The position numbers and the translations under genes are program-made. The notes below the pieces were generated by a model. That model was not told the DNA's origin. It saw only the letters and a program-made list of their open reading frames with translations, and made no database searches. A stretch of 24,000 bases of DNA from Candidatus Saccharimonadota bacterium (GTDB lineage: Bacteria > Patescibacteriota > Saccharimonadia > Saccharimonadales > JACDBH01), in contig JAYTXD010000011.1 of assembly GCA_043743105.1 (NCBI GenBank), positions 1 through 24,000 of the forward strand, written 5' to 3'. Below are positions 16,285 through 17,024 of the stretch, piece after piece. Every line of letters begins with the position of its first letter. Positions within the stretch are counted from its first letter, which is position 1.

Positions 16285-16292
16285 AATTAGTA

Positions 16293-16298
16293 ATATTA
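16293..16298 (-). promoter_or_regulatory. -10-like hexamer TAATAT (minus strand) 8 nt upstream of the 88-aa ORF ATG
   Basis: The minus strand reads gcttTAATATtactaattATG. Confidence 0.35.
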
Positions 16299-16367
16299 AA
16301 GCATGTATTAAAGATTATGTACAGCATTCGTGAAGTAACAACCTGTTTCGTAGTAGGTGAGTTTACG

Positions 16368-16910
16368 GGACTTACGCAAAATCGCTCGTTCCCAGGGTAA
16401 ATATGGCCGAGTGAAAACTGTTTTATCTGAATAAGATGTATCTATAGATACCTAGAGAGAAGAAAAACAGTTTTCACTATGGTCAGATTTGGCCTAGGGG
16501 TGAGTGAGCTTTGCGTAAGTCCAGTAAATTGCAATAAACTGAAAGAGTCTCCAGAGGGGGTGGGCACCGCTGGAGACTCTTTCAGGAGACAAATTGCACG
16601 AGACAATTTATCTCCGCTTTAAAAAACACCCTTCAACCCACCTTGAAGGCCTCCCCACACCATAGGCGTTGATGAAGTATTCTCGTAAATACACTTCATC
16701 CGCGCGTATAGTGTGGGGCCCACTCGAGGTTTTCCGACATATCGCTCTTAGCCTCAAAAAAACGAGGGAGGAATGCGGGGTTAAAGGGGTTAGTCCGCTC
16801 TAGAACGCTCACACTTCTAAAGGAGTGCGCAGCCAGATAAGTGGAGGGTAACAACTTGATCTGACACGTTCTAAAACAGCTAACAATCTATCTGATATAA
16901 CTCAGATAGA
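16368..16910 (+). ncRNA. Candidate large structured RNA, or a cluster of RNA elements, of unknown family
   Basis: No ORF of 60 aa or more in any frame.
- H1, 16368-16522: perfect sub-stems of 13 bp and 14 bp plus an apical palindrome at 16438-16451.
- H2, 16539-16585: 16-bp perfect stem with the 15-nt loop AGGGGGTGGGCACCG.
- H3, 16585-16615.
- H4, 16630-16649.
- H5, 16653-16718: about 23 bp.
- H6, 16887-16910: 9-bp stem.

Five G-T wobbles in H1 work only in the plus-strand fold, which is the basis for the strand call. Confidence 0.4.
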
Positions 16911-17024
16911 CGTTAAATAGGGGTATAAGGTACATAAATCTCTTAAAGAGACTCACGGATTGCTATTTTAGCAAACTTATGACATTATGTCAATACTTAA
17001 ATACATTCGAGGGTTATTGTCAAT

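Follow-up and report, generated by a model that had tools for sequence, protein, structure and literature searches.

A probable gene for a large structured noncoding RNA between pth and dprA in a clade of Saccharibacteria

The window analyzed here, a stretch of 24,000 nucleotides (nt) from contig JAYTXD010000011.1, is a segment of a Saccharibacteria genome, within the candidate phyla radiation (CPR). It carries, in this order, an rluB-like gene, der, pth (15373-16002, plus strand), an open reading frame (ORF) of 88 amino acids (aa) on the minus strand, a gap of 740 nt (16285-17024), dprA (17025-17873, plus strand), and topA. An earlier note on this DNA had described six hairpins in the gap, H1 to H6, and had proposed that they form a large, undescribed structured RNA read on the plus strand. 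Comparison with related loci indicates that the interval from about 16526 to 16993 very probably constitutes a stand-alone gene on the minus strand, encoding a structured noncoding RNA (ncRNA) of about 430 nt whose class is absent from Rfam 15 and belongs to a Saccharibacteria clade. The earlier idea is partly supported, being right in substance and wrong as to strand, boundaries, and the role of H1.

The gap itself is largely as it had been described. It is free of ORFs of 60 aa or more, with 54 aa for the longest that reaches into it, and its GC content (0.39 to 0.49) is like that of the remaining window. It is long, as claimed, but it is not the sole long gap, since two others of 607 nt (21829-22435) and 416 nt (17874-18289) occur in the window. 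All six hairpins are present by arm search and minimum-energy folding, H3 and H4 being seen in the minimum-energy folds of the gap. No repeat of the region occurs in other parts of the window.

Using the DprA protein as a genome query, we obtained three Saccharibacteria loci, L002, L003, and L004 (DprA identities of 86, 56, and 48%), each of which has an ORF-free gap of 475 to 665 nt upstream of dprA. Aligned with the window, these gaps display deeply conserved blocks from H2 rightwards, while H1 is wholly missing in all three. Metagenomes were scanned with a pattern taken from one of the blocks, b3 (AGTGGAGGGTAACAAC, a gap of 8 to 26 nt, then TCTAAA), and at least 120 contigs matched, each of them once among the matches listed, including three contigs of about 1 Mb. 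The remaining conserved blocks are found on nearly all matched contigs in unchanged order. The left flank carries pth in 80 of 90 loci, and the right flank carries dprA in 77 of 78. Occurrence once per contig and stable synteny therefore point to a conserved element and not to a dispersed repeat. The one exception among the matches listed is a 4.3-kb metagenome contig (L134) with two inverted copies, at 974-1375 (minus strand) and 2909-3313 (plus strand), that are 97.3% identical. The second of these has single-base losses inside invariant blocks, and possible explanations are a pseudogene, a chimera of strains, and an artefact of assembly.

Synteny also bears on whether the gap acts at the level of DNA, as a repeat of the miniature inverted-repeat transposable element (MITE) or repetitive extragenic palindromic (REP) type, or as a protein-binding regulatory region for dprA. 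The region is rich in palindromes, two conserved TGTCAAT motifs lie by the dprA start, and H1 could be a MITE-like insertion, inside which two short-read assembly contigs (L001 and L163) end, as expected of a long palindrome. Yet the conserved unit occurs once per contig among the matches listed and in a fixed setting, and no second copy of H1 was found within the window, in related loci totaling 0.84 Mb, or among the viral contigs. Moreover, compensatory changes with a strand-specific G-U bias, described below, indicate RNA, and a single real copy on a viral contig stands against 23 chance 16-mer matches. We regard a DNA-level element as extremely improbable. The real viral-collection match, L162 (IMGVR_UViG_3300049064_000004), carries the RNA itself, blocks b2, b3, b4, and b6 included, and is probably a Saccharibacteria fragment or a prophage-bearing contig classed as viral. 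An association with phages was rejected, 23 of the 24 viral 16-mer matches being due to chance.

To assess covariation, 97 distinct homologues, drawn from Saccharibacteria genomes and from metagenomes, were aligned with MAFFT without reference to structure. Over the whole structure (Table 1), 93.8% of the cells are paired, compared with 33 to 54% when the partners are slid by one to three columns. Changes on both sides are observed in 30 pairs (512 cells), and none of 500 shuffles attains any of the observed measures. H2 to H6 fall within this RNA, whose conservation and covariation are what the earlier note had asked of a functional RNA. H1 has no such standing, as it is missing from all relatives and lies beyond the terminator.

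Table 1. Positions, in the window, of the candidate RNA gene, its parts, and the adjoining spacer features
Feature	Position	Strand	Remarks
-35 hexamer TTGACA	16988-16993	-	TTGACA in 95 of 98 homologues, TTGACT in 3
Extended -10 element, TGc then TAAAAT	16965-16973	-	17-nt spacer; promoter scan
Predicted transcription start region	16956-16961	-	Conserved CAAyyUG RNA start; distance to -10 element and conserved 5' end in alignment
P1, 5'-terminal hairpin, GUGAGUCUC/GAGAUUUAU	16934-16956	-	Three G-U pairs on minus strand; 7 of 8 pairs double-changed
b1, C-rich single-stranded block GUACCUUAUACCCCUAU	16917-16933	-	Family consensus GCACCUUAUAyCCCCC; conservation
P2 hairpin, UUAAC/GUUAG (family UCUAAC/GUUAGA)	16880-16916	-	97% paired; apical extension is H6
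H6	16887-16910
P3 three-way junction	16795-16879	-	Helices 98-99.9% paired; GC/AU/GU exchanges
A-rich joiner ACUAA, then P4 5' strand CCCUUUAAC (block b4)	16780-16794	-	Conservation, covariation
S4, variable multi-hairpin domain enclosed by P4	16645-16779	-	Contains H5 (16653-16718)
H5 arms	16653-16678/16693-16718		26 nt, 85% complementarity
Block b5	16629-16644	-	G-run GGUGG(G) at 16638-16642, then P4 3' strand GUUGAAGGG at 16629-16637
P5, optional variable hairpin (H3)	16585-16615	-	Many homologues lack P5, b5 running into terminator stem
P6 terminator hairpin (H2, 16539-16585)	16526-16585	-	13 of 14 pairs double-changed
H2 arms	16539-16557/16567-16585
H1, 167-nt near-perfect hairpin	16362-16528	none assigned	Window-specific, outside conserved RNA
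88-aa ORF	16018-16284	-	ORFan, in same hypervariable spacer as H1

Across the family, the RNA is roughly 325 to 565 nt long, and its comparison among homologues indicates that variable hairpins are inserted at fixed sites around a conserved core. The apical insertion of P2 differs in length among homologues. The closing helix of P3 pairs 16865-16879 with 16795-16807 (12 to 13 bp) and leads into two arms, namely, P3a, a hairpin at 16834-16863 with an invariant 11-nt loop, UGUUACCCUCC, at 16843-16853, and P3b, a variable hairpin at 16807-16833 that is about 170 nt longer in L002. The long-range helix P4 joins CCCUUUAAC (16788-16780) to GUUGAAGGG (16637-16629) and is paired in 99.7% of cells. It covaries by a C-G to G-C swap in 11 sequences and by exchanges among U-G, U-A, and C-G, with one compensatory C-G to U-A pair in a sequence found in L004. 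The domain enclosed by P4, S4, occurs in at least two structural subtypes among homologues and has extra covarying pairs detected by mutual information. H4 (16630-16649) is a local alternative hairpin at b5.

At the 3' end, P6 has an invariant loop, CGGUGCCCACCCCCU (16555-16569), and a U-rich tail, UUUAUUGCAAUUU (16526-16538). The copies of AAATTGCA that had been pointed out on both sides of H2 are present in the window but are not kept in relatives. A pseudoknot between GGUGGG (16642-16637) and CCCACC of the terminator loop is plausible from base complementarity; it lies beyond covariation testing because both of its sides are invariant. In the homologue alignment, no intramolecular partner is supported for b1. 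RNAalifold proposed a long-range helix between b1 and b5, which we rejected as b1 does not track changes in b5, and the pairing of b4 with b5 is preferred because it covaries. An internal attenuator at b5, formed by the terminator-like site 16630-16649 and a run of six U, was likewise set aside, the U-run being window-specific.

The plus-strand reading of the earlier note, with 16285-17024 as the limits of the RNA, had rested on wobble pairs in H1. A single large plus-strand RNA of this extent, with H1 as its main helix, would agree with the greater stability of H1 on that strand (-82 kcal/mol, z = -13.7, versus -68.6 kcal/mol on the minus strand), with its seven G-U pairs on the plus strand versus two on the minus strand, and with the folding of the whole gap, which reaches -272 kcal/mol on the plus strand (z = -12.1 versus shuffles). 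The wobble count is therefore as had been reported, but in a single sequence this bias to the plus strand is only suggestive, and it has no bearing on the strand of the conserved RNA, since H1 is window-specific and outside the conserved unit. The whole gap folds better on the minus strand (-278.9 kcal/mol, z = -18.9), and the spacer containing H1 is hypervariable, with 1 to about 1,900 nt between the pth stop codon and the terminator across 84 loci. The conserved helices prefer the minus strand. Wobble cells on the curated structure number 389 in the minus reading versus 101 in the plus reading, and paired cells amount to 93.8% versus 89.1%. Read on the plus strand, the H2 stem contains 28 A-C versus 2 G-U among its non-Watson-Crick cells, and the P3 helix UAGAACG/CGUUCUA contains 70 A-C versus 4 G-U. 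As A-C cells on the plus strand are G-U on the minus strand, the conserved helices favor the latter, and together with the promoter-like behavior of 16965-16993 on the minus strand, this leaves the plus-strand RNA highly improbable.

That promoter has a score of 11/12 with the TG extension in the window copy and of at least 10/12 in all 98 relatives. The TG extension is present in 98 of 98 homologues, and the spacer measures 17 nt in 87 of them and 16 nt in 11. Within the -10 hexamer, the first T, the A in second place, and the final T (TAnnnT) are kept, the hexamer being TAAAAT in 49 homologues, TAGAAT in 31, and TATTAT in 9. The variable middle bases are thus promoter-like in their variation, unlike the RNA helices. 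At the opposite end, at least six U occur within 12 nt after the H2 stem on the minus strand in 85 of 98 homologues. Because of the wobble bias, the promoter, and H2 with its U-rich tail, the RNA is assigned to the minus strand over about 16526-16961, with 16965-16993 as its promoter. The transcript is predicted to run from about 16958 down to about 16530. The locus thus combines a promoter, a terminator, compensatory changes, and indel-rich variable hairpins, and lacks ORFs of 60 aa or more, as a stand-alone structured ncRNA gene would.

A terminator at the end of a structured RNA could also belong to a cis-acting, riboswitch-like leader or attenuator that controls a downstream minus-strand gene through H2. 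The terminator loop is able to pair with conserved sequence upstream of it in the manner of an expression platform, the window, L002, and L003 have same-strand ORFs of 88 to 102 aa downstream, and in the window the local hairpin at b5 is followed by a U6 run. However, these downstream ORFs are non-homologous (21 to 27% identity, no shared family), several resemble antisense shadows of pth, about 10 loci have the terminator directly against the stop codon of the convergent pth, and the U-run after b5 is not conserved. A leader is therefore very unlikely, because no conserved minus-strand gene follows and the terminator often abuts pth.

With a stand-alone minus-strand RNA gene as the preferred interpretation, we compared it with known families. 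At the gathering threshold, Rfam 15 recovers tRNA-Glu alone from the whole window, and ARAGORN likewise reports only this tRNA-Glu (5744-5818) and no transfer-messenger RNA (tmRNA) in the window. Relaxed to an E value of ≤10 on the gap (505 to 901 nt), Rfam returns only weak matches to generic hairpins of the microRNA type, and at an E value of ≤1 on six homologous loci it returns nothing for this RNA. Models of signal recognition particle (SRP) RNA and 6S RNA have no matches on the gap (E ≤ 10) or at the six loci (E ≤ 1), and the consensus fold of this RNA is multi-branched and pseudoknotted instead. The OLE, GOLLD, ROOL, raiA, and HEARO models are unmatched on the gap and at the six loci at these same respective thresholds, and literature searches found no description of this RNA. 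The lack of RNase P, tmRNA, and SRP signatures that had been reported earlier is thereby borne out by Rfam and ARAGORN, and the proposed novelty stands, in that the RNA is conserved, covarying, and without a significant match to a known Rfam 15 family.

The orphan large ncRNAs (raiA motif, OLE, ROOL, GOLLD, and HEARO) are similar to this RNA in their size of several hundred nt, many covarying helices, likely pseudoknot, strongly conserved junctions and loops, narrow phylogenetic range, and a function that is not obvious from context. Unlike them, this RNA is restricted to Saccharibacteria, has invariant C-rich single strands, and is fixed between pth and dprA with no phage or transposon association. 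A further comparison is offered by C-rich small RNAs (sRNAs), such as the actinobacterial 6C RNA and RoxS/RsaE of Firmicutes, whose unpaired C-rich motifs pair with G-rich or Shine-Dalgarno regions of mRNAs. The display of conserved unpaired C-rich motifs on hairpins is shared; this RNA, however, is 4 to 5 times larger, with a pseudoknotted multi-domain core and invariant blocks of 11 to 17 nt versus short C-runs, and it has no Rfam match and no target found in the 0.84 Mb of flanking DNA searched. Read on the plus strand, the H2 loop, GGGGGUGGGCACCGC, also resembles what we take to be the T-box sequence, GGGUGGNACCGCG, in a terminator-type hairpin. A T-box leader (RF00230) differs in strand, would be followed by an aminoacyl-tRNA-related gene, and has a specifier architecture, none of which fits here; in addition, RF00230 has no match at an E value of ≤10 on the gap.

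The comparison with RNase P RNA deserves closer attention, since Lui et al. 2021 (PMC8172020) describe diverged CPR RNase P RNAs that only searches below Rfam thresholds recover (the supplements of that study give no coordinates for them), and a highly diverged RNase P RNA could be missed here in the same way. The RNA resembles the type A form (RF00010) in its size of about 400 nt, conserved core, variable-length peripheral hairpins, invariant long-range helix, and strong promoter of the stable-RNA type. On the plus strand, AAAUAGGGGUAUAAGGUAC resembles what is presumably the L15 region of Escherichia coli RNase P RNA and GGUUAGUCCG resembles what we take to be CR-I, both at chance level. These resemblances lie on the strand that covariation rejects, several shared 7-mers are expected by chance between two 400-nt sequences, and the family consensus is further from E. 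coli than the window copy is. RF00010, RF00011, and the other RNase P models are unmatched in both relaxed searches. A plus-strand candidate for helix P4 of RNase P, UUAGUnUG with CArrUUG, has no covariation across 94 sequences, the variable base of CAnACUAA changing independently of its would-be partner, and neither a CR-I (GGAAAGUCC-like) nor a CR-V sequence was found on the minus strand of the RNA. A type A RNA thus differs from this one by its model match and covarying P4. We dropped a plus-strand RNase P on the strand bias, the absent model match, and the non-covarying P4, and consider a highly diverged RNase P RNA to be extremely improbable as well.

What the RNA does can be approached through its pattern of conservation. 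The conserved features persist though the neighboring DprA has diverged to less than 50% identity. Such a pattern is typical of abundant RNAs that dock with a partner, such as RNase P RNA, tmRNA, SRP RNA, and 6S RNA, and less so of short sRNAs that target mRNAs. Its own promoter and terminator, its compact core, peripheral hairpins at fixed sites, and invariant blocks of 11 to 17 nt suggest an RNA acting in trans. In the mechanism we envisage, a near-consensus sigma-70 promoter with an extended -10 element would drive leftward transcription, and a rigid core would display invariant C-rich strands, namely, b1 and the CCUCC-containing loop of P3a. These strands would bind a conserved partner, which may be a protein or cellular machine, with the RNA as scaffold of a ribonucleoprotein (RNP), or a G-rich RNA, for example, a Shine-Dalgarno-like sequence that would be sequestered or regulated. 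That this is an abundant trans-acting RNA working through one or the other of these routes is a tentative proposal from comparative sequence, possible but less probable than its opposite. Many genes of the window have no obvious Shine-Dalgarno sequence; for this reason, and as no complementary target is found nearby, an RNP or machine role is favored over Shine-Dalgarno sequestration. A more specific and distinctly more doubtful suggestion is that the RNA is a subunit of a lineage-specific housekeeping RNP, or a ribozyme, with a status like that of RNase P RNA, tmRNA, or 6S RNA; its C-rich surfaces would then dock on the ribosome, RNA polymerase, or the tRNA-processing apparatus. The position beside dprA may tie the RNA to the DNA-uptake lifestyle of these epibionts, or the link to dprA may be purely positional.

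Large and highly conserved structured RNAs are rare, and new classes of them have in the past led to biochemistry or regulation that had gone unrecognized, as in the cases of RNase P, tmRNA, 6S, OLE, and raiA. Saccharibacteria and other CPR bacteria have tiny genomes with little noncoding DNA, and the retention of a 0.4-kb RNA gene with a near-perfect promoter in such a genome thus argues for an important role. The finding delimits a gene, gives its strand, ends, and fold, and offers more than 100 homologues for a covariance model as well as invariant strands to probe. Its role would be testable in genetically tractable Saccharibacteria, if any of these carry the RNA.

Several points weigh against this interpretation or limit it. 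What is said here of the transcript, its ends, and its abundance comes from sequence and comparison. Homologues were fetched with a pattern inside b3, by which more distant relatives are missed and because of which the invariance of b3 is partly due to construction. Covariation is silent on the pseudoknot, b1, and the b3 loop, all of which are invariant. Two Saccharibacteria dprA loci (L006 and L012) are without the RNA, and searches of the flanking DNA (0.84 Mb) for sequence complementary to b1, the b3 loop, or the b6 loop recovered nothing beyond the locus itself. The plus strand bears the chance-level resemblances to E. coli RNase P L15 and the T-box. Finally, the true RNase P RNA of the carriers was not located, which leaves its separateness from this RNA a matter of argument.

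Downstream of the terminator, H1 appears from these comparisons to be a separate, lineage-specific insertion. Its outer arms, 16362-16380 and 16510-16528, are complementary at 95% over 19 nt, and its inner arms, 16410-16424 and 16464-16478, at 100% over 15 nt. The sequence 16003-16524 is without similarity to L002, though pth is 76% and the RNA 86 to 90% identical there, and the content of the spacer is unrelated between lineages. Located at the 3' end of the RNA gene, the spacer looks like a hot spot for insertions, in a manner reminiscent of integration adjacent to tRNA and tmRNA genes. The 88-aa ORF has no Pfam or PHROG matches, its sole match among 5.8 billion proteins is itself, and no homologue of it was found at related loci.

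On the dprA side of the RNA gene, TGTCAAT occurs at 16988-16994 and 17018-17024, 30 nt apart, and both copies are conserved. The first is the -35 hexamer of the RNA on the other strand and the second lies directly before the dprA ATG; the divergent promoters of the RNA and of dprA may share the pair as an operator. In addition, a Saccharibacteria metagenome contig (L039) has a match to the type III hammerhead ribozyme (RF00008) at 3085-3143 on the plus strand, about 1.5 kb from the RNA, with 39.2 bits (gathering score, 48.5) and an E value of 1.4e-5.

The two other long gaps of the window show features of their own. In the 416-nt gap between dprA and topA (17874-18289), the center, at about 17964-18203, is conserved in many of 22 loci matched by nhmmer. 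This block overlaps an ORF of 64 aa (17977-18171, plus strand) and could encode a small conserved protein or act as a regulatory element. The 607-nt gap (21829-22435) is AT-rich (GC content, 0.34 to 0.38) and lacks both ORFs of 60 aa or more and Rfam matches, and nhmmer matches it in 17 related loci, mostly over roughly 430 to 590 nt. Conserved blocks within it include 22016-22043 (CGTCGTACAATGTATATTTTGCGAC) and a promoter-like site, TTGC...TATGTATAAT, near 22216-22233, and the gap more readily suggests a multi-promoter or operator region than an RNA. Finally, an extended -10-like motif, TGGTACAAT, lies 7 to 9 nt before the ATG upstream of the genes at 490-2151 (minus strand) and 2232-3569 (plus strand). 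Such motifs near the ATG, together with the many genes without an evident Shine-Dalgarno sequence, suggest that leaderless or short-leader mRNAs are frequent in this genome.

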